Below, in pieces: positions 4,869-45,382 of a DNA stretch of 64,000 nucleotides. Each line of letters starts with the position of its first letter. Position 1 is the stretch's first letter. Both the position numbers and the translations under genes were made by a program. Under the pieces are notes generated by a model. That model worked only from the letters and a program-made list of their open reading frames with translations. It was not told the origin of the DNA and did not search any database. Origin of the DNA: Catajapyx aquilonaris (lineage: Eukaryota); NCBI GenBank assembly GCA_000934665.2, contig KZ538409.1, forward strand, positions 1 through 64,000, read 5' to 3'.

Positions 4869-5259
4869 CGGTGTTATGCAATAATGGGTCAGCCCACAAA
4901 AATGTCAAAATTGAGTTAAGCCCAGGAACATACACCCAAAGGATAGTACTTCATTCAGTTAAAATCAAGGTGGCGAAATCTGCATACTTCTGCCAGAAAT
5001 GACCGAAAAGTTGACTCATAAATGTTGTGCTTTGATGGTGTTATGCAATAATTTGTAAACCCACAAAAATGTCAAAATTGATCTAAGCCCAGGAACATGT
5101 ACCTAAAGGATCTTCCTTCATTCAGTTATTATCACGCCGCTGAAATCTGCATACTTCTCCCATAAATGACCAAAAAGAACATTGAATTGGTATGGCCTTC
5201 AAAGCTCTTTTTCTCAAACCTGTTCTCATGTGGGTTGACTCATTATTGCATAACACCAT
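4869..5259. mobile_element. MITE with internal tandem duplication
   Basis: TIR ggtgttatgcaataatgggtcagcccaca / tgtgggttgactcattattgcataacacc; left portion repeated from ~5035. Confidence 0.6.
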
Positions 5260-8054: not shown

Positions 8055-8134
8055 GCGGACTGGATGGTTTGCGAGAATTATTACGGAACATGGGGGATTC
8101 TTGTGACGTTAATATTAACGACGCCAAGATGTCT
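8055..8134 (+). CDS. Cassette 3, small first exon (phase 1 in, phase 0 out)
   Basis: ttcctcctctttccag|GC...ATGTCT|gtgagtaggac; 80 nt open frame GLDGLRELLRNMGDSCDVNINDAKMS; donor context identical to that at 4422. Confidence 0.65.
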
Positions 8135-8887
8135 GTGAGTAGGACTGTAAAATTGCAATGTTTTGGAAAAGAAAACTGCCAAACTTGACTGTTGCTTTCC
8201 AAATAATGTAAAGAAAAAATTTCCTCCTTCACAATTTGAGTTTTTTTGTTGTTGTATTTGGTGGTGGATTAATTTGGGGCAGCAGCTTGCATGCTGGTAG
8301 GATACATGGAGGATAAAATCTGGATGAGACAAGGGCAATAATTGTTGATAACTTAGATTTATTATCAGTGTTGAAATGAACTTGACACATGATTTAGTAT
8401 TGTTTTCCATTACCTGCACTTTTGGTTGCATTGTGTGACTCGATTTATTGATAATGATTTTGGAACAAAACTAAATTTTACATCACAGGTCACCTACCAG
8501 AGAGTAAGGATTTCTCAGATTCCTTGAAAAAATTTAATTCATTGTTGTATGTAAAAATTCATGAAATTTTAGTGCTTTCTAAATGTCATTAGTCAGCATA
8601 TGGATTGTAACCGTTTTGCTTCCGTTGTGCATTTACAATGATTTACTGACTAGCCTTTGTCTAAATTTTTGTTAGGATATGTCTAGATTTGGAATAGGTT
8701 ACACAAAGTCAAATTGGTCAAGTTGCAGCAGATTTCTTTGCTACCCGAAAATTAATCCATTCAACAAAATGATGGCTAAATCGTTTGTTAATGGTAATGA
8801 GTAAATATGATGAGATGGACAAGAAAGTGAACATTTGGTCACATGTGAAGAAAAAGTACAGGAAGTACCCGTTTTACCCCAGTAATT

Positions 8888-9092
8888 TTTTAAAATTTAT
8901 TTATACCCCAATGGGAGAATCGGTGCTCCATTAGGGGGGTAGAGTACCAGTACCACCATTGGATGGGGCCAAGGATAGGGAAGGAAGGAAGCAGCAGTGG
9001 CCTATTATACAGAAACAACCCCGGAATTATCATGGGGGGACCGTGGAAAACCACGGTCAGGGTTGCCGGCCCTGGGATTCGAACCCAGGACT
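8888..9092 (-). mobile_element. 5'-truncated tRNA-derived SINE
   Basis: 17-bp direct repeat GTTTTACCCCAGTAATT at 8871-8887 and 9093-9109; B-box gggttcgaatccc on - strand; similar to the copy at 59718. Confidence 0.75.
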
Positions 9093-9444
9093 GTTTTACC
9101 CCAGTAATTGGTTCCAGCAACACTGCAATGTAAAACGAATCGGTGTAAATCGAGACAAAATAATGTAAGTGAAGGAGATGGGTTCCAAAATTTGCAACAT
9201 TTTTGCACAGATAGTATTAATATTGCTGTTTTTAATGCCCAGTATTTGAACCGTTTAATACACACGTTTAATATGTAAGGTTCTGGGTTGAGGGTCATCA
9301 GGTCCTGAGGGCTCCCTTTGACAAGAAATTCAGCACACGTAGTGTATTGTAACAACAGGTGCAGTGCTTTGGGGTATATATACAGGGTGATCAAACTTTT
9401 TTGTCGTTTTAGTTATTGACAAATTCGGCCTAAGCTGCTTATGT

Positions 9445-9604
9445 TGTAGCGCGTTACCTGGCAACTCCGTCCGACGGGCCAATTCAAACACGAGCATGTG
9501 GAGAGTGCTTCCATTGTTGCCAACAGTGGCAACAATGGAAGCACTCTCCATATGCTCGTGTTTGAATTGGCCCGTCGGACGGAGTTGCCAGGTAATGCGC
9601 TACA
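9445..9604. repeat. Near-perfect ~160-bp palindrome, probably inside a Tc1/mariner-type MITE starting near 9383
   Basis: tgtagcgcgttacctggcaactccgtccgacgggccaattcaaacacgagc... mirrored on the right; tacagggtg terminus upstream. Confidence 0.75.
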
Positions 9605-10160
9605 CTCATGCTTTGTGACAGAAATGTAGAAGTGTTTGGATTGTCTAGTTATTTTCAATTTTGTCATAATTTTAAAATCACGATAAAAAATTTAAAGGTA
9701 ATTTTGAAACTGGTGTTAATGTGAAAACGGCATAAACTGAAGTGGCATAAAATGGGCACTTCCTGTGCAGTATTTGAATCTTCATTGTTCTTGTCTAAAT
9801 AATAATATGATTTCCCAAAAAATATTTGCACATAATCCAGGTAGATTTCCTGGCTATATTTGAAGACCACAATGCAATATGGGCCATCTGTCATTTTTAC
9901 CAAATAGATTTCATGGCATACCATCTTCCATCTGGTGGATACCTATCTGTATAAAATGCAAGAGCTAAAAAGTCACTAGAAGCATTTGAACCAAGCTTCC
10001 AAAATTTCTTTAATTATTATCGGAAACAGAAATAGTTTTATTTGCTTTTTGAACATTTCACTTGGCCCCCTTATTGAATTGCTGTCTTCATTTCCTTCTA
10101 TACACACATGCTTCCAAAAAGCAGAGCTCACAGTCACGTCCACCTGGTGCAACAATGCAG

Positions 10161-10526
10161 GACTCAGGAGATGGAGAATCCAATGGTGGGACTCTGTCCA
10201 GCCTGGAAGTAGCAGTCCTTCTGAGCCCCGGCCCATACGTGACTACCCGCTACCTGCGTACTAACACAACCCGCTTCAAAATGGGGAAGAATGACCGTGT
10301 GGAGAAAGTGTTCAAGCATCTTACCCACAAAGGGTTTGGACAGTACTACAAGGTGGAAAGAACTATGGTATTCTTCAAGAAGCCTATGTGGCGCCTCCAG
10401 GGTCCAACGGCAAAAATGCTTGAGGGAATTTGGGAGTCTTATGCGGAAAAATTTGAGGCAGTCAACCACAGGATCTCAGTACAGCAGGATGGAAAGCTCA
10501 AGGCCATACATCCATTCCTTCCATAA
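10161..10526 (+). CDS. Cassette 3, terminal exon: second copy of the uncharacterised ~110-aa domain
   Basis: Phase-0 acceptor caacaatgcag|GAC (alternative gcag|AGC at 10125); about 50/110 identities, ungapped, to the 5986 exon by manual count. Confidence 0.75.
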   Translation, partial: DSGDGESNGGTLSSLEVAVLLSPGPYVTTRYLRTNTTRFKMGKNDRVEKVFKHLTHKGFGQYYKVERTMVFFKKPMWRLQGPTAKMLEGIWESYAEKFEAVNHRISVQQDGKLKAIHPFLP

Positions 10527-13500
10527 ATTCATCAGTTATGATGATCCACACAAATTAGTTGGCCCTAGATGCTGAACAATTTTTACACTTGACTTGTTGA
10601 CTGTCACTTCTTTGTCACAGGATCCAACAGTTGTGAATGAATCACTTTTGAAATAGGTGCCACTTGATTACTCATAAAGGCTGTTTTAGTGAAATGTTAC
10701 TATGCAATGTAAAATCATGTTCCTTAAAAAGAATTTTGATGTCGAGTTTTTCGTGTGACTATTTTCAACAATTCAGAACAAGTTGGACGTGTATATTTTC
10801 TTAGGCGGCTTCTGAATGCATCCACTTCCAACAATTTGGAAGGGAAGAGGGTTGTACGGTTGGTCATACATGATGTATGAGTTGTAATGATACATGTTGT
10901 GACTGCTTGTTGGAAACACAGAGTGATAGTATTGTGTGTACCCCTGAACTGGAACTTCTGCTGTTGACAAGATAAAACTACATATTTTCTTTCAAGCATG
11001 AAAGTGAGTTTACTAAAACCTAATCATGTTATGCATTTATACTGTGTGCATTTTTCTTAACAAAAACCAGGGTTGTACTTGACAAATAAGTATTGTTGAT
11101 GTTAATGTTACCATTGAGGCCTCTCATATGTCTTCCACTATTTTTATGACATGATATTAAAGACAGAGATTATAAAATGGTGAGCGGATCATGACTGGTT
11201 GCCTTCGTATGAAACCATAAGGGCATTTTTTTTGAAGGCACATTTAACATTTTTATACTACATTCCTAAGATGTTTAGAGAACATGAATATGCATGGTTG
11301 CCTAATGTTCTGGATCAACCTTTTCCCCCATCCCCAGTAGCACTCTCAGAACGTGAATTTGCCTTTATCCTAAGTAGTGCATTTACTTGCATATATGCTG
11401 CATTATGCTTATTGGCATGAAAATCATGGACAAATTTGCATACATGTATATCTGAACTATATTTGTGATCAAGAAAAGTTTTGAGTAGGTGGTGATTCCA
11501 TGACATGTGAAGCAGAGGGGTGAAACCTTCAAAAGTCATATAGGTGAAACAGGAAAAGCAAAGTGTAGTGAAGGTCAACAATGGTGACAAGGCAGTATGA
11601 CTTAAAGGTCTGACAGTTATGTTCGAGGTACCAAGTTCCAAAATATTTGGAAACTGTTTCACAGGTTTTTTTCTATACAACATTGTCGTCAACAGACATT
11701 GTAGTGTTTATTCCCACCTTATATTTGGGATTTATTAAGAAAATACCTGTGCCTGAATTACTTCCACCAGAAATCCCGTTGAAGAAAGTTATAAATTTCC
11801 AGTTCACACTCACTTGTGCTTCAAGTTTATTTCTTGTCACATAAAGACAATTAGCCAGATCAAAATTTATTTACATAGTAAATTTGCCATAACTCCTGAA
11901 AGTATCCCTTCTAGGATTGTTTGTTTCCGTCATGATAATTTTTACTGAGTGTGTTCTTAATCATATAAGATAAGAAGTGAAACTCGTCTTTTGCCTAATT
12001 ACATCCCCAACCAAGAATATGGATTTGGAGGTCAAGGTTCTGCAATTTTTTCCAACTTAATATGGCCATGGTTAGGAGCATTGGAGAATTTTTTTTTGTA
12101 ATCTGGCAATGTTAGAAAAAAACTTAAGCTTTGGAGTTGTTTATTAAAAGTAATATTTAATGTAATAAATGACTACAACTCAGGCTGTACAATATGACAA
12201 TGAATTCATACATTAATTCCATTGCTATCAATTGTTGTGAACAATTTATAACCATAAAATATTGCTCATTATATTCAGTAAAAAAATTCATGAAAGGTTT
12301 TCAAATGCTCCTAATGCTTTCTGTGGTCGTTTGAAGTTTGAAAAAGTTCATTTGTAAATCCAGACTTCTCAGTTTGGCATCTGAGTAGGCAAAAGCGGAG
12401 TTTCACTCTTTTATCTCATATTAGGAGCGACCTCATTAAAAATTATCATGATCTGAGCTGAATACAATCCTGGTAGAGATCCTTTGTATGTATACAAAGC
12501 CCACTGGCATTGCTGTTGGGGTACCTGTTCCCATGTGTCTTGTCTGGATACTGGGGCATAATAAATGTACAAATTGATTGTCAGTCATGTGTGATAGTCA
12601 TGTAAAAGACACCAGATCATGATATTTTAGCAATCTTATTGCATGTAGTAAACTCATGAGCACATTTCAGGCACAAATAAGCCAAAATGTTTTATCCAAG
12701 CATGCCCATTGCAATGGCTTAATGCAAATATCATGGCCAGTAATAATTGCAGTACATATGCAACAAGACCACACACTACCAAGCAAATAAATCAACTTAC
12801 ATCAACAATAATGATTATTATTGTTGGTGTCGGCATGTTCCTATAGGAAATTTTGTTCATTCCTGCATATCATTGCTTCATTTTGCTAGTTATTTATCAG
12901 GTGTAATTTGAAGCCTTTTATTTCTCTCAATCTGACTCATTGTGTAGTCTGTTACAAAATCCTTTTTGTGACTTTCACACAGATGACCTGCAGCATCTTG
13001 GAAATGAAATATTTGGTCTATGCTTGAAGTACAAACTTGGCTTCCCAAAATATTAAGTAAACAAAATACGTACAGGATATCATTAGTTCTATGTTCAGAT
13101 GTGTCATGCATGGCTAGGTCATTTTGTCCAGGACAGCATCCAAGCAGTTGCTGTTCCTCTCAAACTCCAAATCATGTGATCGGACCCAGATCCTTAATTT
13201 TTGTGACTTCACAAAAGCAGCAGTGTGCAAATTGCTCAGTAGTGCAAAAAAATATGGGCTGAAACCTCACCACCTCCCTTGAACATCACATATGCAAATG
13301 TAATTTACCCAGAAGACATGGGCATATTTTGCAACCTATATGCAAGTAATATTGTAATACTAATTTTTGTAAATGCTTCGGACAGATGCGGTTGAAATAT
13401 TGGTCTATAACTGACAAGAATTTTTTATAGGTGCATTTGCAACTTTCCTCACAGCCAGTGAATCTCTTGGATAATGATATGCATTACTAAGCTTCAGTTA

Positions 13501-13937
13501 ATTTTGTACTATTTTGTAAGAGCAATTGTTCCATTGTGGGTACTAATATTGTACTATTAGATCTCCAAGTGAAGGGTTGTCTGGGTTAATAAAAACAATC
13601 ATGAATATGTAATTGTTGAATTTTATACACTGACATGCATGAGATTATTATGAGTGTAAAAGGAACGTGTTTCAGGCATGCAGCTTAGGACTTTTTCCAC
13701 TGCACCACAGGACTAATTAAAATCCACCAAACAGATCAGGTAATGAAATGTGAAAAACAAACGGCAACATCCATCACTTTAGCTAGTGTTAAGGTTAGAA
13801 GGAAAAACTTGTGGTCAGTGTAGCATTTGCAAAGAAATTGCCCAATCGTACTGGAAATACATAATGGTACGTTCACTCATTTGATTTCAAAAATGAAATG
13901 TTAAGAGACATTAACTGATTGGGCCATTTCTTTGCAG

Positions 13938-14128
13938 ATTTGGGAGGTTCGTTAGAGGAGAACACGAGCTGGATGTGTAGAATCCGGTCCACGCAACGGC
14001 ATCCGGAGCAAAACAAAATAGCTGCCATCAGAGACATAGAGGCCGGGGAGTCAGTAAAAAACACTAGTCTTAAGTACAATATCCCCGAGAGGACTTTGAG
14101 AAGATGGAGAAATCAACTTACGCAGTGA
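13938..14128 (+). CDS. Alternative terminal exon 4: psq-type HTH
   Basis: catttctttgcag|AT, phase 1; EQNKIAAIRDIEAGESVKNTSLKYNIPERTLRRW. Confidence 0.8.
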
Positions 14129-14576
14129 CATGTTTAGGACACTTCAACTGGGTGTTTTATTGTGTTAAAGGGGTAATGTCAGAGTTTACGTAGACCATTC
14201 AGCTATGTGCATTGAGAAGTTAATTGATGAGCGGGTTAGCTTAACTAGGCACAGTAAAATTTGATAGACTTCCCAAGATGACTGCTGCTTGATGAACAAC
14301 AGTCTCAGAAAGACATTTGTATTTCTTCAATAATAATTTGATTGTCAAATTTTACTGGGGCCACTTGACATATTCAGGAGTAGTGCTTGATGCAAGGTTA
14401 GGGTTAATTTGCTCAATCTTGCAATACATTTACAGACCGATATTAGTGGGTGCTTCCCTTTCTTCATGTTCATTGTTATAATGGAATAAAAACAAGCTGG
14501 CACAAATGCACGTATATTTGTATGGGAGATGAGTGGCCAGTTGTGTTACTACAAGAGTGGGCATCTTCCGTTGCAG

Positions 14577-14788
14577 GTTGGATTCAGTCGAGGATGAGCG
14601 CAAACTATACGGCCAGTGATCTAAAAGCCGCCATAGATCTGATAGAATCGGGTACCATGGGCATCAGGGCTGCTGCTAGGCAGTACAGAATTCCATACGA
14701 AACTGTTCGCAGGAATTATGCATTGCAGTTATCAGGCAGAGGAACCATGCAAAAGATGAATGCTCTGCCATGGAATTCTCAGTACTGA
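14577..14788 (+). CDS. Alternative terminal exon 5: pipsqueak HTH
   Basis: catcttccgttgcag|GT, phase 1; YTASDLKAAIDLIESGTMGIRAAARQYRIPYETVRR. Confidence 0.85.
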
Positions 14789-15052
14789 TAGACACCTAAT
14801 GAAATGGGCATTACTTTTTTTGTGTTGTATTCCTACATTTATGTGATGCATAAACAACTCTGTGGTATGCGCGTGTTCTTGTGTGAAGATCAAAACTGCA
14901 CACATGATGTTGGAAGGCCAATGTTTACCTGGTGCATCATTGCCTGGTCACAGGTGATGCAAAAGTGGAGTTCTCTTAATGAAACATCCTGTAGGGTGTT
15001 GTCAAGTTGTGCTCAGTGCAGGTGTGACTGCTTCATACTTCGTATTCCAATA

Positions 15053-15494
15053 CAGGGTGAAGGGAAACTTGCGGATATTCGCCAGGTAGATTGATAGTAC
15101 TCGTAAAAGTAATATTGGGATGTACAATTAGTTTTGGGCTCCGTTGCATAGTTAATGTGTACGGCGCCGTCAAAGTTTCGTGATGTCACATCCGTTCCGC
15201 CAGCTTCAAAGAAGCAAATGTCAGTTCAAGGGCCTCCGGTCCCTTGCCTTTGTCCCCTAACACATCATCCATATGCGATAGGTAATCAAATCCCGTCAGA
15301 GTAAGAATCTGGGTAAGAAACCCTTGCACTTTGTCGTTTTTACTTCATACTTTACCATCTGGCCCTCTACACTTTAAAGACGCCATACGCATTAACTATG
15401 CAACAGAGCCAAAAACTAATTGCACATCCCTATATTAGTTTTGCTAGTACTATAAGTTTACCTGCCGATTGTCCATGAGTTTCCCTTCACCCTG
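15053..15494. mobile_element. Tc1/mariner-type MITE
   Basis: TA|cagggtgaagggaaact ... agtttcccttcaccctg|TA with long subterminal inverted arms. Confidence 0.75.
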
Positions 15495-16616
15495 TATATT
15501 ATTCTAAATGCCATTTTTTTGTAAGATCCCAAATTTTATACATGCAAAATGGCATTAGTCTGTGATGATAATGATAAGGGACCTTCTGAGTATTTCAGAT
15601 TTAAGAAATTGTAGGATTTTCTTCCCATTTTCTGATTGATAAGGTAGTCTGATCATCATGGATGCAAGAAATTGTCTTGTGAATGAAATTCAGCCATATT
15701 GGTGTACACTCAAGTACAGCATCTTGGTGACATTAATGAGGAATTATTTATAAGCAAAAAATGCCATGTTCAGGAGGAGTATGTTCTGGCATGATGATGA
15801 GAGAGAGAATGTAGTGAAAATTCAATTGTGGAGGGTTGCTTTGTTTACTTGAAGGAAGATTTTGTGAATATTGTGGTACAATTTAATCTGTTGCAGTGAT
15901 ATTTTGAGACTAACTGCCTATGTTAATCAGTTAACTTTTAGGAGTTATGAGAAATATTACCTGCTGATATTATGAATTGCCATGAATTTCCAAGGCATTA
16001 CTGATAAGTTCAGAACAATTGGCATCTGAGATCAATGATTAATCCAACTTTGTAAGCTACATCTTGTAGTGGTTAAAAAATAAAATGTTAACAGTTAATA
16101 TTTTGATAGTGAAAAAGTAAGTAAAGGTAAATGCTTTAAAGTAACTTCTAAATAATGAGCAGCTTTGTGACAAATAATCACTAACCAAGTGACACTTCAG
16201 TTGTAATACACTGTATAATATATACCATATGTGTAACAAAAGTCAGCTTAAATCCTTATCAGTGAAAATTTCACAGACCCTGACCATGGTTGCCTTGCCT
16301 TCTAGTGTGATAGGGAGTTGTATATACAGTTTTAGAGCACATCTAGTAGGGTTACTGAATGGATATAACTACTACACTTCAAGATTTGAGTTAGAGGTGA
16401 CTGAAGTGAATGTCCACAAGATTTTCATGGATACTAATGTAAATGGACTTTTGTTATATACATAGTGCGAAGTCAGTAAGACGACTGTTGGTTTGCATTT
16501 GCCTTTCAATGCCATGTCATTGCAGTTCCCTGGCCCCCAGCTTGATATCTATAATACCCTTTCTTGATGGTGAGTCCCAAGGTGAGTTCCCCTTCTTCCC
16601 TGGCCTTATCTTCCAG

Positions 16617-16900
16617 GTTGGAATAGCGGGCGCAGGTACAAACAGTACGCCCAGGTCGATCTGGCCCAGGCGCTGGATGCTGTCACTGCAGGGATCTGCT
16701 CGGGGAAGGGAGCCAGTCGCAAGTACAACATCCCTTATAACACTCTGAGGAGGTGGATGGAGAGATGTGCCATCAGGGCCAGGGGCAAGAGGGGGAGAAG
16801 GAGGAGGTCTGAGGTAGTCGGGGGGGCAGGGGACAGAGGAAGAGGAGGACAGGAGGCGGTGGCTGGAGAGTCAGCCAGTGGGGGTGAAGGAACTAGTTAG
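16617..16900 (+). CDS. Alternative terminal exon 6: pipsqueak HTH plus basic/Gly-rich tail
   Basis: ccttatcttccag|GT, phase 1; manually translated GWNSGRRYKQYAQVDLAQALDAVTAGICSGKGASRKYNIPYNTLRRWMERC...GRRRRS...EGTS*; this frame is not in the ORF track. Confidence 0.85.
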
Positions 16901-17523
16901 GAGTATGGGAAGTGGGAGCAGACATATTTACTCGTGACTCAGTGCACCCATTAACCCAAGTGTAATTTTTTGCTCCATATTTTTTCTAATGTAATTAGTA
17001 ATTGGAGATCTGCTTGTACCAAGCATGAATTTTTTGTGTGCTGCATCACTTGGTATAAACAGATACTCAGGTACTAATCTCATATTGAAAATATTAAGCA
17101 AAAAGTCTTGTATGTTATACCAGCTTTAAGAAATGCCCGAAGTGGGATTTGGTAATGAAGTTGATATGCGCTTTGTGCTGTTTTTTAATTAATTATGAAG
17201 CATTGTGTATGGAGATGCCTACAGTTCCTGCTGTTTTTGTTGTGCTAGGATTTGAGTGTTATGTATGGAATTCAGTGTCACAGTGAGGTGTTATTAGTTG
17301 GAGAGGACAGTGGACATTGCTTTTCCAGACAAGTGATTTTCAGTAGTGATTTTAGAAGTGTCAAAAGTGTGGATTCTGGGTACAACTAGCCAAAGGACAA
17401 TTTGTGCAGTATATCCAAAAAGAATAAATGTGATGTGAAATCCAAAAGTGACTTTATGTTTAAGCACAACAATTTTTTCATTTGCAGCCGGGCTTGACTT
17501 AAATCTTTCCACCTTTTTTTCAG

Positions 17524-17840
17524 GCTTGGTCTGGTATGACCCGGAAGATACCCAGCTAGAGAGTGGCTATACATTCACTGCAGGCACCAGCGCCAGCACC
17601 ACCAGTAGCAGGTTGACTACTATGACCCCACACAAGAAGTCCCGCCGCTTGAAGCATGCTGATGATGTCCTCCAGAAGGCTGCTGACCTAATAATAGCAG
17701 GGACTTCTTACAGGAAGGTCAGCCAGCTGTTTGACATCCCGAAGAGTACTCTGCATTCATTCCTCAGGATTAGAATGGGATTGAAAAAGAACGAACCAAA
17801 GACCAAGGGGCATGCAGTGTTCCCACCTAGTACTGTATGA
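17524..17840 (+). CDS. Alternative terminal exon 7: pipsqueak HTH
   Basis: ttccacctttttttcag|GC, phase 1 (second in-frame acceptor at 17488); HADDVLQKAADLIIAGTSYRKVSQLFDIPKSTLHSFLR. Confidence 0.85.
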
Positions 17841-20800
17841 GAGGTGCAGAGTATGTGGATTAGGGTCTGTGTGATGTCATTTTTTTAAATAGCTATCTTC
17901 AGAATCATTGGCTCAAAAAAGAGGATATCACCTTTGAACAGATAGCTATTTTAAAGTAGTGACTACAGGATGGTTGGAAAGGTTTTAACCTTCTTGACTT
18001 CTACATCTTTTTGGACTGATGATATGATATAGATGATCTATTTTATTGATGAGGACCCTTGAACAGTGGACACTTCATGCAAAAGCATAGAAGTATATTA
18101 CTTGCAACAGAATGTCACAGCCATAAAATATATCATCAGTAGCATGTGACGTAGTCCAGCAGGAGTCAAGGTCCCAGGTACATATTCAGATTTGTTGAAA
18201 ATTTTAAATGCCAAAGAAAGAAAAGGCTCAGCAATGATATCATGACTTTAAGAGAAACTGCATTCAATTTACAAATTGATATCTAAAAATTGGGCAAAAA
18301 AATCTGGATTCAGAGGGTGCATTTCTGAGAATTGAAAGGTAAGCCCAGGGCAAAAGGTCAAGGTCAGGAAAAATTTGTTGGCTGCAGTTTCTAGTTCTTA
18401 AGGCAAAGGGAACAGCCAGCGCCCCAAATGGCACTGTGTGAACTCAGGTTAATTTTACAGGCGATCAAAACATGCATGCATATGATGTATTTATGTTTCT
18501 AGAACAATCAAGGAAGTTATTTTATCATTGTCATACTGGGCTTGAACCAGTTACATAGAACTAAGGGTGTGGTACGTATCTGCCTCACATAAGTTTGAAA
18601 TTTTAAAATCCAACCTGCAAAATATGACACATCTGTTGATCATTCACCTGCCAATAGACATCTTTTCACCATCAACTAACTTAGATCAAGACAGGGATAT
18701 TGGGCTGGTGATGTGAGAGGACAATTTACACTTTGTGAAAACTATCGATCTCTCTTGTCACTATAGTGACAGGAGACAGATTGATGATAATGGTCACTTG
18801 CTCCCTGGAATGGTGTGACCAGATGGACCCCTTCTTTTCCCCAATTCATGCCAGGTGATGCCCCTATCTAGTTGTTGACAAAACTTATCCAGACTGACTT
18901 TTTGCTCTGGGGTTACCTTTCAATTCTTAGAGAAATGGATGGCACCATTGGAATCGAGATATTTTTTGCCAAATTTTTGAGAGCCCAAGCTGCACATTGA
19001 GTGCAATGACCCTTTCAATGCTCAAGTATAATGTTTCGCATGAAAATGTTTCCAAGGTTATATCTTTCACAGTTTTTCATATATATTTAGTGTTGAACTT
19101 TAATACAAGTCTGTGGGATTTTAAACGTTCCAATCAACCTGTATATTGGACTGATTTGTTGGAGAGCCAAAGCTACTATATTAGAATGATTATGTCTTGA
19201 ATCAGTGGCTATGTTGGTTCATGTGTATGCGTGTCTGAGTCTTAACATTTTCTTATTATCAAAGGAGTCACGATAATGGCATTCTAGCCAATGTCGAAAA
19301 TCAGAGGCATAATCATTATTAATGTAATTCTTGGATGCGCAGGAAAAAGAGCATAAATCAAAAAAGCTCACATGTCAGGAAAGCAGATTATCTTAAATAC
19401 TGGACTTCTTGTAAAGATGACATACTCTTGCTCGCAGATTTTCCTAGCCTGGTTTTAGGGCTTGACATGCAGCCTTATGGCAGAACCAAGAGGGACTCCT
19501 TGTGACTATAACTGGCATAACAGGACACGTAACTCAATTTGCACATTTTCTGACTTGTGCTCTTTTTCCCGTGCATCCGAGAATTATGCTGGGGGTTAGG
19601 AGTAAAGGTGACTGACTGTGAGTATAATAGGAAGATTTCCTATTACCTGTGCATTGTAAACTTGCCAAGATGTATTTTCTCAAAATTCACGTTGTGTGAG
19701 GTAGCACAGAGTCATCCTAAGACCATAACTTTTCAGCACATGTTTTATATGGGATTTCAGACTGAAAGGGGTTAGAATTTGACGGTATTTTTATTCTTTC
19801 TTGTAATTTACACCAACCTGTAAGACATTTGGAGCTTCCATCTCCCAGTTTATGTGCCTTAAAATTGAAAATGCTGTGATTACTTTTCTAATAAGTTTGA
19901 TTCTTCATGGAGATTTTATTTCCTGTACACAAAAGATTCTAAACCCTGGAAGTCTAGTTTCGTTGATACTGTAGAGTATATCTTGTTTCATTGATACTGT
20001 ATTTGGATAATGTTTTGCTATGTTATCCACTATTCTGTGTAGTTCATTGCAGAATACTTCTCTTTTTTAATCATACGCAGTTATGCTGACCGAACTTGTC
20101 ACGTAGTACAAGAAAGTGAACCTTGATGGAGAAAATAATAATGTCACTATTATTATCCAGAGATTTATGTAACATTTTCTCATATGTTAATTTCTTAATG
20201 CTGTCTCAAATTTCTGAAATCGATAAGCTTGCTCAACATTTTTTTAATTTTTTTAATTTTTTTAATTTTTTTGTCTTCATAATATGACTAGTGTAAAAGT
20301 TCATACTGCTTACCCAACAAATCTGTGTGCCCAACAATATTGCATTCCAGCCTTACGTGATACTTCTGTAGATCCAAAAGTCACCCTTGGCCAGTCAACT
20401 CATGCCTTGATATTCCGAGTACCAATCTTCAGAACCAGAATGTGATATAATTGGACACAAGGCTTTGTGGGTCATGCAATCCTTTACTGACCTGCCAAAA
20501 TATTACGGGTCAAAAAAGTGCTCACTGCAGCTCGTGGCTGGATGACTCCTGAGTTCAGGAGAAGAAACCTGTGAGAGTGGATAGAAATACTATTATGTGG
20601 TGTGGAGGTTGGGAGGGTGAGAGGAAGAAAAATGATGTGTCAATGCCACATAATAAATTTCCTGGTGCACACAGACTCCTTTCATCACTCGAACAGAAAT
20701 CCTGGTAGACAGTACATGTTATTAATAGTTACAGGATCTGAAATTATGATCAAGAATTCTTCCACAGTTCTGGTGTGAGGGTGTATGCCATGTTGACCAA

Positions 20801-20910
20801 AAAAGTTTATGTTAACTTGATAATCATGAGGTTAAATGTTAAATCTGTACTTTCTCTTTGAGCGTAATAATAAACGGGGGATTAATGATTTGTGTATTAT
20901 TCCATGTGAC

Positions 20911-22067
20911 TCAAGTTGGCGGATTAAGATGTGTAGTAGGGGTGTCAAGCAAATTTTCAGGGACTGCTGCTGGTTGTAATTTTTCTTTAGTATCATCTAA
21001 AGGATCTTCTTCACTGAGACAAGCAGATGCTTGCAAATGTTCATCCATCTGAAAGGGAGTGGAACCAGTTATATTAACTTCGATTTGTTGACAATGCTGA
21101 AGAATATCTTACCCAACTTGTACTATCCATATCTTCACCAGTGATCTCCTTCTCCGAATCAGATTCAGCAGGTTCCAACTTCACAATCACTAGTTGACAC
21201 CTCTCAGCTACTGGCTCAGTCACTGGCACATTGTCTTCAGTCTTCGGTTCTATTACTGGTGGCATTTTGGGTGATAATCTGCTCTTCTTTATTGCTGGAC
21301 AATCTTTGCTTTGCTTCCTCTTGCAAGATCTACATCATGAACATAGCAAAAAAATGTGTCTCTGTTACGTTGGTAAAACTCTCATGTGCATGCCTGAGTC
21401 AAGTTGGCATTCCAATAAAAGTCTCATTCGGAGGGCAAGCATGGCATAGGCAGTCTACCATGGCATGCAGCCATGTGACAACTCAATCAGGATGAGACGT
21501 GCAGGATTACATTGATGCGAATAGCCTGACAGTGAGCCAACTTTTGGGTCGCTCTATAGCACCATACAAGACTTGTCACAGATACTTGCAAGCAAGAAAA
21601 ACAACATGCCTGATATGAGTAACTGGCTCCTCTTCTGCAACTTCTGCAGGCATGGACAAACCCCTTATTTTTAGAGCCTCTGCCGCTTTGATAAGGGGCT
21701 GCAGGTTTTCCCTCTCTACACTGACCAGGCCTTTGTACATGAAGTCAACAAGGGCTTCCACCTCCCAGGACTTGATGTCCCTCAGAAATATAATGGGATG
21801 AGGGCAGGGATTCTCAGTGAGGATCTTTTTAAAGTATGAGGAGCAGGCAGACAGAACCATTTTGTGGCAGTGGAAACTGTGGCCTTCTTCACAGGTCAGA
21901 GTCACATCAACAAAGTGCTGCTGGGCCAGAAGGTCTGAAAACATTTGGTTCATGCACAGGGAATGCTCCTTCCAGTGGATCTGGAGCAGTTGGGACAGCT
22001 GCTGTGGCACTGGTTTGAGTGGACGAGCTGCTGTACTTGGTGTTGGTATGACAGCATGATGTGTCAC
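20911..22067 (-). CDS. Tramtrack-group BTB/POZ protein; exons 22067-21610, 21329-21113, 21048-20911
   Basis: QLLQIHWKEH...FVDVTLTCEEGHSFHCHKMVLSACSSYFKKILTENPCPHPIIFLRD...LVDFMYKG...AAEALKIRGL; splice phases chain in frame (0, 2, 0); acidic tail and no C-terminal DNA-binding domain. Confidence 0.85.
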
Positions 22068-22429
22068 CTACGAGGGACAAATACAGGATATCTAGTGGTT
22101 ATTTTTTATTTATTTTTAAAAATCAACCTGTTCATTTTAAGCAGTGCCTTTTGAAAAGTTACTTTTAGTGGATTTCAAAAGTATCAGCTACTAGTAATTC
22201 TCAGTAGAATAATTCATTCTGGACCTAAAATGCAATGAATTTATGAGCTTAAAACATTAGGAGTGATCCTTTCTGAACCACTGGGACTTGAGGTCAATGG
22301 CAGCAATTGTTAGACCCTCCTGCATTGGTTTTAAAAAATGGTCTTCTAATATACCAAATATTAGCATCTGGTGTGTGAGAAAACCTGTAAAAGTAGGTGT
22401 AACTCCTGAGCTGCAATTACAAGGGAACA

Positions 22430-22780
22430 ACCAAGTCGATCGCGTCCGATTTAGTTGAAACTTGCTTGAGGGGTCACTGATGTGCGATTGACACTGTGGT
22501 GGGAGTCCTAGATGACACTGTTCAGCCATTTCCGAGATATGAGCGACAGAAACATCCGAATTTTGTCCGCGCGTATAGGGGCCTTGCAGGACCTTGCAAT
22601 TGTCCCTTCCCCCCCGACACCTGTATGCGGCGGTATGCACAGCCAAAATTAGCATTTGTTTGTGCTCATATCTCGGAAACTGCTGGACAGTGTCATCTAG
22701 GACTGTCACCACTGTGTCTATCGCACATGAGTGACCCCTCAAGCGAATTTCAACCAAATTGGAGGCGACCGACCTTGGTC
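22430..22780. mobile_element. Foldback MITE-like element
   Basis: accaagtcgatcgc...gaggggtcact mirrored by agtgacccctc...gcgaccgaccttggt; explains the paired similar ORFs on opposite strands. Confidence 0.7.
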
Positions 22781-23024
22781 TTTACTTTGTTAGTGTGGAA
22801 AAATCACGAACCACCATGGACATTAAATGGTTATTACATTGAGTTGTCCATTTGAGTCTGAAATATATGGTAAACCAAAATAGTGTATTAATTACCACAA
22901 TAGTACAAGGGCATGCTGATAATTTTTGCCTCCTTGTACATAGAATCTGTAATATGATACATATCACAGGACAATGTGGGTAACATCAAACGAGAGCCAG
23001 GAATGTCCTACACAAAACCATATA

Positions 23025-23445
23025 CAGGGTGTATCTGAACTCAGTGCCCCGACGTATATGACTGCCTTCCTAGCCACCAGAGGATCGATTTAAGTATAGG
23101 AATCATTATGTTTGGCCGCCGCATTACGGAGATAATTGGCCGCAAACATGTAGTACAAAATATCCTGTCGGTTAGGCCACCCATCGAACCCTCCCCCAGT
23201 CAGAAGGCTCTGGAAGGTTGGGGGGCGGGACTTCGTTGGTTTGTTGCCCACAGGTGGTAAGGCCTCTTTGGCTAGTTACACCAGAAAATTCTATTTAAAA
23301 GTCAGGAGCGATTAGGCAAAAATCGCTAAAGAGTATATCTCAGTAATGAGGCTGCCAAACATAATGATTCCTATACTTAAATCGATCCTCTGGTGGCTAG
23401 GAAGGCAGTCATATACGTCGGGGCACTGAGTTCAGATACACCCTG
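23025..23445. mobile_element. Young Tc1/mariner-type MITE
   Basis: About 90-bp perfect TIRs cagggtgtatctgaactcagtgccccgacg...; TA flanks. Confidence 0.85.
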
Positions 23446-23536
23446 TATATGTTGTAGCCCCATAGCAAAATTGGGCACTTCAAGAAATGTCTACTGAAAT
23501 TGGACACATGCTGTAGTGCAATCTCTTGTGAAGAAT

Positions 23537-24270
23537 TACAGCATGTGCCCAGAAATATTGGACTGTTCGTGAAGTGTCAGCAACGGGTTGGACTGATTCC
23601 GTAATATTCAGAATCTACCCAGTGTATATGAGCAGCTGAGAAAAACTAGAAGGTGTGGAGGGCATCAGGAGATGCAGAGTGCAGGCCATACCTGCCCATG
23701 ACCTGGACGAAATGTGAGGAGAGAATGTCTGAAAGTCCAGGAGTTGGTCCTGACTCTTGAGCCAAGGGTAATCCAGGTGACTGTACAGAAAGGTTGTCAT
23801 CTGTACTGTGATTGCATCAGGAGTCTGCATATGACTTTGAGATGACCAAATTGGTCATGAGAATGCTGAAGAGAGAAGATTTGCAGCAATGCACTTTGGT
23901 TATTTCCTCGGACATGTCTTTGCCCCATCAAATGACACTTATAATCAACCAATCAGACAAGTACTTGCCTTCACTCATAGTACGGATGGCAACCTTTCCG
24001 TACAGTCACCTGGACAGCTGGACTACCCTTGGCTCAAGAGTCAGGACCAACTCCTGGACTTCCAGACATTACCTTCTCACATTTCGTCCAGGTCATGGGC
24101 AGGTATGGCCTGCACTCTGCATCTCCTGATGTCCTCCACACCTTCTGGTTTTGCTCAGCTGCTCATGTATACACTAGGTATAGATTCTGAATTACGGAAT
24201 CAGTCCAACTTGGTCCAACCCGTTGCTGACACTTCGCAAACAGTCCAATATTTCTGGGCACATGCTGTAA
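23537..24270. mobile_element. Large foldback element with ~270-bp inverted arms
   Basis: ttacagcatgtgcccagaaatattggactg... / ...cagtccaatatttctgggcacatgctgtaa. Confidence 0.7.
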
Positions 24271-25039
24271 TGGGGAACTAGCCTTGGTCTGGGATTTGGG
24301 ATTTTTGTTCATAACTAGCTAGCCCATGCCTGTAAACATACATTCCATCACTCTGTTGCATCAAAATGACATTACTGGATAAATTACGGCACATTTAAAA
24401 GTGCCTTCAAAATTGGCGGGAAAAACGCCGCTGCCAATCGAAAGGGTACACGGAAATGCCTGGTTGACTGCGAGATATGAGGAATTTGACTTTGAATTAA
24501 CCGCGGACACGACGGAAAGCATTCGCAAGGCGGCTGTAGGCCATCGAGGTGGAGAAAGGGGGCCTTCATGTGCCGAATTCGGGTGACAGATGATTCCTGC
24601 CAGTTGGCACCACTGCCAGCCCCTGAGCTGATTGAGCGGCGTGAAGTAAAAACGCGCCCCGGCCGCTATCTTGCTCACGGAATGGGACGGTTGCTAACCA
24701 CAGCGAAGCATTTTACAACAATGACGGGGCGCGTTCTATAACACCATTTTTGCGTTCATTTCACTTCGCGTGACGTCAACATTTTCTAGGGAAACAGTGA
24801 CGTCACCATTTCCCTACATAAAAACCCCAATTACTCCGGAACGGGAACTGATATCTTAAAACGGAATATGCCAAAAAAATACAAAAAATATGGGCGAATT
24901 TATTATGTAGTTTCCAAAATGAAGGCTAGTTCCCCATTCTTCATGGGAGATTGCACTACAGCATGTGTCCAATTTCAGTAGACATTTCATGAAGTGCCCA
25001 ATTTCGCTATGGGGCTACGACATATACTTATACTTATAT

Positions 25040-25345
25040 ACTTTTCTTCATAATCACCACCTACTGCAATGCACTTGCACCAACAATGTACTAGTTCTTT
25101 CCTCCCATTGGTGTAGGACTCAGGGCTGTGAGAGCTGCACCAAGCGCTAACAGCAGCCTCAACTTCTGCATTGGAGCTGTACAGATTGCCCTGCAACTTT
25201 TTTCTCATCCCAAAATGAAGACACACCTGAAGGGACATCAGAATTTGAGACTGCTGTTCGCGCATGGTGCCACTCCCACAGACCAAAGTCCTATACACAG
25301 ATAGGAGAAAAGAACTAGTTGGTGCAAGTGTATTGCTGTAGTTGG
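25040..25345 (-). mobile_element. Mariner transposase C-terminal remnant
   Basis: KKLQGNLYSSNAEVEAAVSAWCSSHSPESYTNGRKELVHCWCKCIAVGGDYEEK matches the mariner ...WxKCIxxxGDYxEK terminus. Confidence 0.7.
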
Positions 25346-26021
25346 TGATTATGTAGATAGGTATAAATACACGTAGGTTTTGAACGGTCCCGGGTCTGAT
25401 ACCTACGGAAAAAAATACGGACGGGATAAAATACCGACGGGAAAAAAGTGGAAAGGTATAATTATGTTCTTTGTATATTTTCGGTAATAAAGCTGTCGGA
25501 AATTTATTCTGTCTGTATTATGTCTTTCGGTATTACGTACCAGACCCGGTTTTGAAGCGGTCATTCCATGCTTTCATTTGATGTTACCCTCATTGTTCTG
25601 TGAAATGTATTACAGATTCTACATATACATGGAGGCAAAAATTATTAGCATGCCCACGTATAAATTTGGAGAAAAAATTAAATATTGGCCATCTTCTTAT
25701 GCCAATGGTATCATTAAGTTAGGGCAATATAAATGTTAATACAATGTGCTCAAACTAAAGAAACCATGTACATTTCAGTCTGACAGTGAGTGTTCAACAG
25801 TGAGGTTTCATAAATAATATCTCTACTTCTAACCTATAGGCCTATTAATAGGGAAATAAGTTATACAATTTCTCCAGAATATCATATTGGTAACCATGCA
25901 AAGATATCTTTTCTTACCAATTTAGCTTAGCACCACACGATTAACTTGTTTTGTTGTAGATCTTATACATTTTTGACATATTCTGTTGGGATGCCTGTAA
26001 TACATCAGTGATATGCTATAG

Positions 26022-26420
26022 TTAAAGAGTTACCTGCTTCCTCTTGGGCTGCTGCTGATGTGTAGGTCTATCCCATTCTGGTGCCATACCAGTACTCGAG
26101 GCCGCAGATGTAGAAGAAGAGTGGTAATATAGGCACCTCTGGTGCGGTTCACTCCTTTGGTGCTTATCAAAGGCAGGATGGTTGAAATTGGACGTTCCCT
26201 TAACAAAGGCGGAATTTGGATCAGCAACGGAGCGGTACCCCCGGCAAACGGAGCACCACATCAGCTGCTCCACCTCATCAAAGGCCAACCATTCGTAATC
26301 AAGCAACCACTTCTCTTGGAATTGCCGCCCTCCGGGTCTATTGTTGTGGGACACCTGGCGACCATGCTGCTGTACTTGATGAATCCTTCGGCCGGCCGGA
26401 AACGAGGTCATTTTCGACAT
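26022..26420 (-). CDS. TTF-type (hAT-transposase/ZNF862/C17orf113-like) zinc-finger exon; probably the 5' coding exon of the BTB gene
   Basis: RQFQEKWLLDYEWL...MWCSVC...AFVKGTSNF...DKHQRSEPHQRC; strong acceptor at 26462, ATG at 26420, donor CAG|GTAACT at 26034 (phase 0) just before the stop. Confidence 0.75.
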   Translation of the reverse strand: MSKMTSFPAGRRIHQVQQHGRQVSHNNRPGGRQFQEKWLLDYEWLAFDEVEQLMWCSVCRGYRSVADPNSAFVKGTSNFNHPAFDKHQRSEPHQRCLYYHSSSTSAASSTGMAPEWDRPTHQQQPKRKQVTL

Positions 26421-28619
26421 GTACAAACGGAGCCGATCGTCCCGAATGTGCAAGCGACTAGTCTGGCGAAGGTTGGAAGTGGAAAAGAAATAATGCAAGC
26501 GGATCGAAGGTACGCTCACGAGGAACGCATGCGCTACCTTGCGGACCAACTCTCATACAGTACCGTATAGCATGCGCTCTTTTAAATTGCCGTATTATGT
26601 GCCCAGCGTACACATGCATCCATTTTGTCGCGTAGTCTTTGTGGCAGATTGTTTGTATGAATAAAAACAGTACGAAAAGTACTATAAGAATCCCGCCTAT
26701 TCACATCTTCAGAAAGAGCAAAGGGTTTTTTTTGTAGAAGGGTGAAATTAACGGCATATCTGCAAAACATATCTATTATTTTCTCGCGAAGCATGCATGA
26801 CCCAGGCCTCAAACTTAATCATACTGAACCAGTGAACCTTATACGTCCGTCAGAACTTGTGTCACCAAATATGACTGATATGTAACGCAAATACATCACT
26901 AATTATTGTGGAGGCCACCGTTCTTGGGCATGTGACTGAGCAAGTGACCAATGAAATGCTACTTATGTATAAAATGTGGATTTTTACGTTTTATAGGAAA
27001 ACTAATTCCATAGGCGCATATTCCTGGTGTTACTCTTTCTTTCAGTTGATCTCGTATGTTCATAGGGCTTTGACCACTTTACTAACCAGAAACAATTCTC
27101 CAAAAAAGGGCTCATTTTCAGATCCGAGACGGTCTAGCAACATTTAGGCTCACTTGATTCGGAAAGACCCATAGTAAACAGCTCCAAACTTTAAAACTAC
27201 ATATCTCAAAAGCAGCACAATTCTAATTACATATTTGGAATCAGCGGCGAAAATACCAATTTAAACACATATCATAACCCGAGAAAATATACCCTTGTCG
27301 AACAGTGTTATTAATATTCATACCATAAAATAAGAAATAGAGAAAAACGAACCACACTTCATTTGATTCTGACGTTTTTTGTGGAGAATTCCCCGAAGGA
27401 CTCCATGAACCAATCACTACATCCACAGTGTTTTCAGTGGGAGTATGCCTATTTTGTAAATGTCTAAGACAAAAAGACAGCCTATCATATTGCAGTCATT
27501 TGACAGAATCTTTTGAGATATTTTGATATCAGTTCTTCACTGGCTAAAAAGCCTATACCCTAAGTGTTTTATGAACAACTCCTGCTCTTGGATGATGCTA
27601 TGTTACATATTGAAAATAGTGTACCCTACTGATATTTCATTTATTTTGCTCTACCTTAGTACCAGTGTTTTCACGCCAAATCATATTGTGACTTTCATCA
27701 CCAAAAACATTACTCTTGGCAAGAGTTATTAGCTCTTGCTCTTGGCTATTTCAACTGGTTTGCTTGTTGCTTGGTTTCCTTTCATTAACATGCTCAAAAT
27801 TAAGTCGTCAAAAACCGTTATATTCCTCCAGTTTATTGGCATTTACCAGGTAGGCTATTTGCTTTAGAGGAAAACGCAAAAAAATGCAGAAAATGCAAGA
27901 TAATTTCAACTGGCAAATTACCCAACCGACTCTTTGGGAATATCAGAAAAATTCATGCATATATATCACTGTATGGAACGGCTCGTAAAATGACTGCTGC
28001 AAACTACTCAGAGCAGTAGGTAGGATTTTATTTTGAAAAGAAAAAAATGGGGGAAAAAACTAAACCCATCCGAACAGATTTGGTCCAATATTGAAAAAGA
28101 CCCTCTAAAATTCACCAATTAACGTTTATATGTGAAAGATTAAACATTAGAGTTAAAATCAGCATCTAAAAGAGGTGACGATTCTGCATGAATGTTTCAT
28201 GGCAATAATTCGCACCAATCTTATAGAAATTCAATGTGCTTAATATTGAAGTTCCTAATTTCAGAAAACACTAATATGGAGTGGTTCATGTAAAATTAAT
28301 GGGTGTAATTTTCGTCGTACTACTATTGCGATTAACTATAGGTCTGTAGTTACTGCTAACTTAGCAGTACCATTGCACTACACTGGTACTGCTAAGTTAG
28401 AAGTAACTATATAATAGTAGTACGACAGAAATTCCACAAATTTGTTTTCAGAAAGGAGATTTCATGAGTAGTAAATTGGAAATTGCTTGAGTAAGACCTG
28501 TGGTACAGCTTGGTGAAGGTCTTACGTGCGCCTGCCTTGTTTCAGTACCTTCATTCCGCCACGGAGGTCTTACTACCCTTTTCTTCACTGGAGGGAATGT
28601 TTTTGCTCTTATCTCATTA

Positions 28620-29784
28620 CTAGCAGGATACCCGGCGTTGCTCGAGTTATGAAATACTTTTTCATGTAGGTGTAAGTTTGGTGTAAGTCACTGATTTGGT
28701 AGTAACCTTTGAAATAATTATGGCTATACAATGTTGGCATACCTGTAACATGGAGCATATTTCATGTGCATGAAGTCCAAACACCACAAATGTTACAAAG
28801 TGAAAAAACAAACAAATGCAAAAAGATTGAAAACTACATGACACAGTAGGCCTACCTACGTAGACCACATTATGCCACACCTTATACACCTTATACCTTT
28901 ATACCACACCTTAAGCACGTTAAACCACATCCCATAACGACTTTTGAAAATACTTTGAGGATGTGGAGGTCCAAATTTTACAAAGGGAGAAAAAACAAAT
29001 AAAAGCAAAACGATTGAAAACTGCATGACGCAGAACGTAACACAGTTCGGAAGAAGGGAATTCCGACAAAAAGCACATGACACAGTACGTAGAGGAAAAG
29101 GCATGGCAGAAAAAGTACCGGTATACGCCAAGAAAATTCCGACAGGCTGCCTGAGTAAACAATAAACCACAACCGCCATTAGTCTACTATTCTTACACAC
29201 ATCGCATTTGTACCACCAGCTCGAACCCTGGGCCTGCCCCGAGGCCGTAGCTGGACCGTGCCACCGTGTCTAGGATAAACATGGAATAAGATACACCATA
29301 GGATAGCAAGATATGGAACTCTTTGAATATTATGAACAAAACGTGATGATTACCTATAATTACACCAACATTCTCGTAACCAAGGTAACAGTGTGTAAGG
29401 ACTTGAAAATGGAACAACGTATGCAGCCAATGTGAGTACAAAACACTGACCAAAGTACAGCCACCACGTAGAAATGCAATGACACTGCTGATGTGCTGCT
29501 GGAGGAGGTGGAAGGGGGGAGGAGGGAGGAGGAGGAGGGAAGGAATATGGTTTCCCGGGCAACTGAACAGCATTATTGGAACACAGGGGGCCAACTTCCA
29601 AAGTTCTTTTCGCCTCCTGTGGCCAAGGATGACCTCGGAGGTCAATTCCAATGCGCTAAGATCCTTCCCGGTAAAAAACTACCCCTGGTGATACCCCTGG
29701 GGCATATGTGGAGGCCTCCGTATGGATCTGTTTAGGTGACAGACAGAAAGACAGACAGATATAGGTCTTGAAATATGTATTAGA
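28620..29784 (-). mobile_element. Non-autonomous Helitron-like element
   Basis: On - strand begins A|TC and ends CTAG|T, with a subterminal hairpin-like cccggcgttgctcgag and a (GACA)n tract near the 5' end. Confidence 0.6.
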
Positions 29785-30103
29785 TGCCTTGCATAAAAAT
29801 TGACAAAACTACGAAAGTGAAGGTTGGAACAAGCCACGGACGTGACATGTCACGCTCTGTGACCTAAAGAAAAATATGATAGAATTTTCTCATTACATAC
29901 TTGTTATGTGCCCCCTATTCCGCAAGTTGCAATCTTATTTATTTGTATGTTATCTGGTTTTCAGATGTTATATTAAGTCCAGAAATTAGCTGGGACATGA
30001 AATTGCAGGGTTTTTCACTATTTAATAATAATTCATACCCCGTTATCAGCCATCGGCTCTTTAGGGGGGAAGTTTGTTTTGCCTGGAACTCTTTGCTTTT
30101 CAT

Positions 30104-30319: not shown

Positions 30320-30898
30320 ATTTACCCACATACGTATGTGTTTCAGAATCTGTTCCATTAATTTCTCGGTAAGCACCAGCAGTGTGCAAGAACTGCTTAT
30401 TGTCCTTGATGCCTTTGCAAATTCCATGGAAGCAGCTACAGACGCATTACCTGAAGTGCCTCTATAGAGTCTAGACTGTTAGCCAAATTGAAAGTTTGTG
30501 CGTGCTGCTTCTCATCCTGGAACAGGCGAATGGAGCACGCGAAGAGCTGCATCTCAAGGTTGTCCCATATGGTTACGGCCATTCGATGGAAATGGGATGG
30601 GAGCAGTAGGGCATCCTGGTAGTTGGCTAAACAATGTTTTAAATAGTTCACCAGAGGTTTCATGGCTTCTACTGGTTCCTTCCTGTTGAGCAGGAGCTGG
30701 ATTGATTCTTCGACCAGATTCTTGATGGTGTCTTGAATCACGAGCTCTACTTTTTGGAACAAGCCATTGAGCGTGGATACCATCTGATTCAGTCTGGTTT
30801 CCCTTTCCTCTTCTTCTTCGAGCTCCTTCTTGCAAGATTCTGCTATTGCAGGACTCAGAGACCTGTGAGTACATCCACTCGTGTCATTTCTCATTTGA
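30320..30898 (-). pseudogene. Munc13-4/BAIAP3-like MUN (MHD2) domain fragment with a frameshift
   Basis: EAMKPLVNYLKHCL...HFHRMAVTIWDNL...IEALQVMR, then +1 frame CFHGICKGIKDNKQFLHTAGAYREI; recalls Munc13-4/BAIAP3 PLMxYL...F.R....W...L..FFHAEGKGL; cut by a SINE. Confidence 0.55.
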
Positions 30899-31197
30899 CT
30901 GTAGATGGGGCATATATATATACACACACATACATACATACGGTAACCTAGTAATATCAGTCTGCTAATGGCCAAAAACAAGAACGGAGAGTGTATTTAC
31001 ATTTGCTTTTACAGGATAGTGTTTAAAACACTGAAGGATCGTGGCATTTCAATTGCTCACTGAAGATGAAATGCCCTCGGAAAAATGCCATTTGCACAAC
31101 AATGTCTAAGCCCAACATAGTAATTCTGAATTAATGAGACAATTACTTGTACCCCCACTCTCCCCTACTTTGGGTGTGTGTGGGTGTGTGTGGGCGG

Positions 31198-45343: not shown

Positions 45344-45382
<39 letters not shown>

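Follow-up and report, generated by a model that had tools for sequence, protein, structure and literature searches.

Gene structure at the locus

The stretch of Catajapyx aquilonaris DNA analysed here (the window, 64,000 nucleotides) is the start of contig C735 in a 286-Mb assembly. Its minus strand carries a putative gene in which a transposase-type zinc finger lies N-terminal to a BTB domain of the tramtrack (TTK) type. Four exons of 387, 458, 217 and 138 nt add up to 1200 nt and encode 399 amino acids and a stop, with junctions in phases 0, 2 and 0. The original prediction had joined the same segments into one stop-free frame; the coordinates stand, with the correction, unflagged there, that the donor at 21610 is GC and not GT.

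Coding exon 1 (26034..26420, minus strand, as are all exons of this gene) begins with an ATG, encodes a C17orf113-type CCHH finger (26297-26121) recognised by Pfam, by alignment and in a structural model, and ends after a KRK motif at a phase-0 GT donor (CAG/gtaact), as had been proposed. A CpG-rich segment upstream (26421..26665), which matches nothing else in the genome, is a candidate promoter and 5' untranslated region. Intron 1 (22068..26033) would span 3966 nt, of which 2771 nt lie under repeat matches. Exon 2 (21610..22067) encodes a proline-rich linker and the BTB domain with a degenerate TTK motif, LLQIHWK; its observed-to-expected CpG ratio is 0.07. It starts immediately behind an in-frame TAG, at an acceptor (cctcgtag/GTG). 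No ATG occurs in frame until 21953, past the tryptophan of the N-terminal strand and part of the first helix, confirming that no in-frame start codon precedes the first strand of the BTB. The phase-2 GC donor that ends this exon (CAG/gcatgt) has the best fit to the donor consensus among 17 GT or GC positions scored past the BTB and supplies the phase required by exon 3; retention of the GC intron would give a product of 292 amino acids.

Exon 3 (21113..21329) runs from phase 2 to phase 0 and ends at a GT donor. A basic stretch (KRK, KKSR) and PKTE and VKLE motifs were picked out in it by eye and are candidate nuclear import and SUMO signals. Exon 4 (20911..21048) encodes what by eye is an acidic tail, and ends in TGA. 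Two candidate AATAAA signals, at 19920 and 19795 (19790..19920), follow about 1 kb past the stop. No DNA-binding domain was noticed C-terminal to the BTB when exons 3 and 4 were inspected by eye.

The proposed junction between finger and BTB

The finger exon ending at 26034 is likely spliced to the BTB exon at 22067, to judge from the sequence around both sites. When donors were scored on the minus strand from 19500 to 30000 with a weight matrix, three GT donors reached 4.5 or more in these 10.5 kb, and that at 26034 is the only one outside a repeat match. The GC fraction drops from 0.51 to 0.32 across this donor and rises from 0.29 to 0.53 across the acceptor at 22067. No candidate internal exon was found in intron 1 outside repeats. 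An alternative phase-1 donor at 26090 would lead to a stop after 163 amino acids.

The region 25660-26665, comprising the finger exon and 245 nt upstream of it, is single-copy in the genome, and repeats start at 26665. In methylated arthropod genomes promoters keep CpG and gene bodies lose it. The CpG ratio is 1.32 over 26421-26720, 0.67 in the finger exon and 0.07-0.20 in the three later exons. Exon CpG alone does not discriminate, because seven plus-strand terminal exons elsewhere in the window span 0.31-0.85 (five anoctamin exons, 0.17-0.36); the upstream segment does. The first nine of eleven modules at a paralogous locus, C260, described below, have ratios (0.66-1.04) comparable to those of the finger exon and upstream segment. 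The motif GCGCATGC, a candidate NRF-1/Erect wing site, occurs only twice in the window, at 26527 and 26570; it was singled out post hoc, two matches per window arise in 9 of 100 shuffles, and it lies near only two of the eleven C260 modules. A scan of 26420-26720 with consensus patterns found no DNA replication-related element (DRE), TATA box, initiator (Inr) or Ohler 1, 6 or 7 motif.

The segments 22419-25655 and 26665-27300 consist of nested non-coding repeats with inverted ends, resembling miniature inverted-repeat transposable elements, and one family among them has at least 40 copies that share 98-99% identity.

The zinc finger

The finger belongs to Pfam family zf-C17orf113 (PF25431; E 1.1e-11, 44.8 bits against a curated cut-off of 29.5). 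It had been called TTF-type, presumably after the SMART name ZnF_TTF; the association with hAT transposases is borne out, and the family is PF25431. The ligands C56, C59, H87 and H93, together with W38, W44, M54, G75 and F79, occupy near-invariant columns of a 73-sequence alignment, and the predicted local distance difference test (pLDDT) score of the model exceeds 90 over residues 31-100. A search returned 470 relatives at E 0.001, of which 150 were listed. The closest among these are the N-termini of hAT-like proteins, 42-51% identical, the full-length ones carrying DUF4371. The genome contains two other matches, both in disrupted frames of hAT type (C10205 and C6024). The window gene is itself no hAT transposase: its finger frame ends after 132 amino acids without catalytic or dimerisation domains, and the exon is single-copy.

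By analogy with its N-terminal placement in hAT-like DUF4371 proteins, the finger may bind DNA. It has no significant match in the PDB by sequence, and Foldseek with the finger model found none at E 0.001. The nearest solved folds, weakly similar (Z 5.6, root-mean-square deviation 2.2, 61 residues aligned), are RNA-binding fingers of the matrin/U1 type.

Ten of the 150 listed relatives also hold a BTB, one of them a tubeworm protein with fingers N-terminal to a BTB not of TTK type. A word-index search for the finger among longer proteins gave no match among 221 candidates, and none of the 65 matches to the window BTB is preceded by a PF25431 finger. In the search for a finger-before-BTB architecture, proposed earlier as a check, no close database protein was recovered. 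The heads of two cockroach proteins, Periplaneta isoforms X5 and X9, match the profile of the finger family at E of about 1e-6; they were the two matches obtained when N-termini of the head-first family were compared with it. Cockroach annotation thus includes a related protein of finger-then-BTB layout.

The BTB domain and its ancestry

The window BTB matches Pfam BTB (PF00651) at E 8.8e-25, over the cut-off. TTK-type BTB domains, for which the motif FxLRWN has been defined, are reported absent outside arthropods in the available text of one survey (PMC11426971). The named relatives of the window BTB are all arthropod. In the window BTB itself only the tryptophan of the motif is retained. A strand is predicted at residues 7-11, pairing with residues 93-98 of the partner copy, and a hydrophobic B3 strand (HPIIFL, predicted at 72-75, as in the paralogues), the element through which dimers of TTK-type BTBs contact one another, would be the equivalent of LOLA I70/I72. 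Modelled with two copies, the domain forms a strand-exchanged homodimer with a score of 0.65, where the best of three controls scores 0.00; at least 92% of contacts are shared between runs, and pLDDT is at least 85. The pass mark for such models was attained by 7 of 16 one-chain pairs from animals and by none of 30 eukaryotic single chains. The domain is thus predicted still to dimerise, although solved BTB dimers exist and the model may reflect memorised structures. Its top Foldseek match is the CG6765 hexamer 8rc6 (E 3.5e-7), barely ahead of other BTBs.

Two trees were built, of 74 and 34 rows over 120 columns. The window BTB falls within a clade supported at 99/99 and 100/99, nested among proteins with xCVRWN or xCLRWN motifs, consistent with TTK descent. 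The clade unites BTBs of pterygote proteins in which a DNA-binding head precedes the BTB (head-first), the BTB-first psq family, springtail-type BTBs and three genes of the same genome. The best tree places the window gene with C260 and the springtail-type BTBs (81/94); neither tree unites the C260/springtail group with the pterygote head-first BTBs in a clade of their own. Among 77 BTB matches within the genome, two paralogues, C1872 (63%) and C260 (61%), stand ahead of the next (44-48%).

Either paralogue may be the parent of the window BTB. The approximately unbiased test rejects neither a grouping with C260 (p 0.29) nor one with C1872 (p 0.35); informative sites number 7 against 8. A proline-rich linker, a BTB exon without a start and the lack of a C-terminal domain point to C260; adjacency, 59% identity as against 58% for C260 and a junction phase unlike that of C260 point to C1872. 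Against both paralogues, over 109 codons, non-synonymous divergence (pN) is 0.23-0.24 and synonymous divergence (pS) 0.78-0.81. With synonymous sites saturated and pN at this level, the window BTB is taken as an old duplicate under constraint. It sits on a long terminal branch (0.88-1.68).

Paralogous loci with many heads or many tails

The locus on C260 (76263-104700, plus strand) contains eleven modules between 76263 and 92792 that were identified by eye, every one made up of an ATG, a domain and a donor. They are followed by a shared 135-nt exon, phase 1 at both ends, and then by a BTB exon with a phase-1 acceptor. Eight of the modules end in a phase-1 donor (seven the best-scoring, one the best past the domain; binomial p 0.009). 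Pfam DNA-binding matches are present in eight of the eleven (CENP-B/Tc5 in two, MADF in one, Myb/SANT in three, FLYWCH in two), and the remainder, labelled by eye and similarity, are two BED-like fingers and one other finger. One C260 head matches a head from the springtail Folsomia (36%, E 6e-8).

C1872 (6887-4547, minus strand) is BTB-first, with an ATG inside the BTB exon and three in-frame exons ending in phase 1. The starts of C1872 and of the window contig share a 199-nt repeat at 98% identity, and the C1872 gene points toward that end. On the plus strand of the window, 3049-17840 holds seven alternative terminal exons. Phase-1 acceptors are present on five of them; the remaining pair, phase-0 cassettes at 5986 and 10161, would connect by way of two small phase 1-to-0 linkers (4330-4421 and 8055-8134, plus strand). 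This array is assigned to C1872 because its phases fit the phase-1 end of that gene; it likely belongs there and not to the window BTB, the two contigs being joined, by inference, through the shared repeat. The terminal exon at 13938 carries a helix-turn-helix label given by eye only.

Head-first proteins in other hexapods

A search with the C260 BTB gave 551 matches, 120 of them listed, from which 41 were chosen for long N-termini or extra domains. In 28 of these 41 a DNA-binding or transposon domain lies N-terminal to the BTB; ten have an N-terminal region in which Pfam recognises nothing, and three are BTB-first. THAP, FLYWCH, BED, Myb/SANT, MADF and CENP-B heads are annotated on a common BTB in springtails, cockroaches, locusts, bugs, thrips and bees, and some heads recur in more than one order. 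Isoforms within a species have their linker and BTB in common and are distinguished by the head; their numbering reaches X21 in Periplaneta (XP_069684516-538), X20 in Schistocerca (LOC126284806 / LOC126203965) and X11 in Rhodnius (XP_073977446-458). Head-first proteins are further found in Zootermopsis (LOC110829301), Cryptotermes, Halyomorpha (XP_014286742-4), thrips, Hylaeus, a braconid wasp, Folsomia (XP_021962314) and Allacma. A member of the family in Diachasmimorpha has a tyrosine-recombinase-like head of the Crypton type.

From the common junction and by analogy with C260, the heads in these other hexapods, known there from proteins alone, would be first exons. Six Logan contigs of 1.5-3.8 kb hold a head and BTB in one frame and resemble spliced transcripts. 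An Atlas search with a cockroach isoform gave a best score of 0.80, a lead only. The window gene shares with this family a head exon upstream, a proline-rich linker and a BTB exon without a start ahead of the BTB. It has a single head: no second one was found among open reading frames of at least 80 amino acids, selected ones of which were scanned against Pfam, or in the sequence to 39000.

Interpretation and alternative explanations

The window gene is probably a single-head, fast-evolving paralogue, in a clade that includes a head-first locus, with a CpG-rich start at about 26.5 kb and a hAT-type finger exon spliced to the BTB. Transcription would begin in that CpG-rich stretch and yield a 399-residue product, presumably nuclear, whose N-terminal finger could bind nucleic acid and whose central BTB could pair. 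The finger would provide specificity for sequence or structure, which pairing of the BTB would multiply. Mixed oligomers with other TTK-type proteins may form, to which the finger would add one more specificity. At the related head-first locus, one BTB body would be served by many alternative first exons, all of which bring a start codon and a DNA-binding domain of their own. The proposal of a zinc finger-BTB chimera made by exon capture agrees with the gene model and with the type of finger, but its layout, recurring in C260 and many hexapods, is not that of a rare local chimera.

Several observations weigh against this reading. The splice is deduced from sequence. No database protein close to the window gene was found to have a PF25431 finger directly ahead of a TTK-type BTB, and in nine of the 150 listed finger relatives, from fruitless and decapod genes (five bear the name fruitless or are similar to it), the finger is C-terminal to an N-terminal BTB. 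DNA binding is uncertain because the nearest folds are those of RNA-binding fingers. Three adjacent C260 modules (78760-80769) end in phase 0, and no matching acceptor or phase 0-to-1 linker exon was found for them. The long terminal branch could reflect relaxed selection. The finger does not match any of ten C260 heads (best E 0.3); since, in addition, its junction is in phase 0 and the C260 acceptors are in phase 1, the head was not inherited from the present-day C260 array, and so would be a separate capture or a head since lost from C260.

In the finger frame a stop follows the donor at 26034 after three codons (9 nt), with an AATAAA at 25508, so a finger-only product of 132 amino acids is possible. 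This opens an alternative with two products: the finger-only protein, from a message polyadenylated within intron 1, and a BTB protein, translated from Met 21953 of a transcript with a non-coding first exon and thus lacking the first strand. A weak donor at 26538 (score 0.4, the best one upstream) and an acceptor-like site at 26462 would permit such a first exon. The 38 codons ahead of Met 21953 are nevertheless open and preserve the strand and helix of the modelled dimer interface, an out-of-frame ATG at 22057 comes before Met 21953, and the GC step falls exactly at 26034. The rival first exon put forward in the original prediction, 24522-24388, lies within a high-copy dispersed repeat (24266..24940; 931 candidates, of which all 40 scored are 98-100% identical, with a copy also in C260). 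The BTB-only reading is weakened accordingly. The two-product arrangement is regarded as unlikely.

Decay of a duplicate that has lost expression is given still less credence. The gene has the longest branch of its clade, a FxLRWN motif reduced to its tryptophan, a GC donor and young repeats in its intron, all of which would suit such a fate; 1200 nt free of stops, saturated synonymous with low non-synonymous divergence, four intact zinc ligands and the restriction of the repeats to the intron speak for a maintained gene. Very improbable is the idea that the finger exon serves as a 3' cassette (26462 to the stop at 26022) trans-spliced behind a BTB, as in mod(mdg4), or that the opposite-strand array at 3-18 kb has its body in the window BTB. 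The acceptor at 26462 is a good one, in phase 0 and in frame with the finger, the donor at 21113 is also in phase 0, and PF25431 fingers form 3' exons in fruitless-type genes. Such an arrangement would leave the BTB exon without a start, and the 3-18 kb array is accounted for by C1872, whose phase-1 end fits five of the seven terminal exons directly and the other two via linkers.

Around the preferred reading, of a finger exon spliced to the BTB, a bolder one can be sketched, somewhat short of probable. Hexapods would possess an ancient locus that mirrors mod(mdg4), in which promoters set in a row place captured transposon heads, one apiece, onto a single oligomerising BTB, and which has persisted since the split of springtails and winged insects. 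The window gene would then be an inverted copy of the adjacent BTB-first gene that gained its own hAT finger at the front, in a clade whose polarity flipped repeatedly.

If the layout holds, many insects diversify transcription factors through the promoter used and not through splicing at the 3' end, and oligomers of TTK-type BTBs could combine heads and tails from several loci. It would also offer a route to transposase domestication, in which a finger together with a donor lands upstream of a BTB exon. The isoforms of cockroach, locust, termite and bug are in the annotation already, under the mistaken names bric-a-brac or tramtrack. Taken by itself, the window gene is a modest example confined to its lineage; most of the interest lies in the wider family.

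Other features of the window

A helical-looking coding frame at 30439-30996 (minus strand) has three paralogues in the genome (63, 53 and 41%) and no significant match in Pfam or the PDB; its candidacy as an Unc13-type exon feeding the finger exon was dropped for want of support in either. An anoctamin gene occupies 43743-63242 (plus strand), PF04547 being recognised in the one exon scanned.

Comparison with known systems

One close counterpart is the unnamed hexapod locus. Like the window gene it has a head, a proline-rich linker, a central BTB of the same clade and no C-terminal Pfam domain; it differs in having many heads as against one, and the window BTB is 42-48% identical to it. This head-first cassette locus is apparently widespread and undescribed: no description was found in the literature searched, which included few subscription journals, and the supplements of PMC11426971 may tabulate such proteins (Zootermopsis domains). 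Where the available text of that survey mentions a BTB in the middle of a protein, only CG6118 and bab2 are named, and TTK-type proteins are described as interacting broadly (PMC11426971).

The mod(mdg4) and lola genes, with at least 30 and 20 isoforms respectively and a variable C-terminus (PMC11426971, available text), likewise combine a BTB of the TTK lineage with interchangeable DNA-binding modules, FLYWCH and others. The accessible part of a further study treats mod(mdg4) orthology alone (PMC5094011). In these genes a constant N-terminal BTB is followed by variable 3' exons, added by splicing or trans-splicing; in the window gene the order is reversed, the variable part being an N-terminal head, of which C260 has several, each with its own ATG, and the window one. 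An isoform of fruitless (for example XP_032289462.1) also carries a PF25431-like finger, likely of hAT-transposase type, on a TTK BTB, but at its C-terminal end and on a BTB of a different clade.

Three further systems bear comparison. BEAF-32A and BEAF-32B arise from one gene with alternative N-terminal BED fingers and a common C-terminal self-association domain (PMC5021357); the two heads are of a single type and the body is BESS, not BTB. Isoform b of vertebrate KCTD1 is head-first through a transposon-derived exon upstream of a BTB gene (PMC3212892); its BTB is of the KCTD/T1 type and its head derives from a Crypton recombinase, indicating an independent origin. Octopus CENP-B-BTB and THAP-BTB proteins resemble the hexapod family in uniting transposon-type DNA-binding domains with a BTB; in the available text they are counted as separate genes, the BTB is called transposon-derived, and neither 'alternative' nor 'isoform' is used as a term (PMC10027918).

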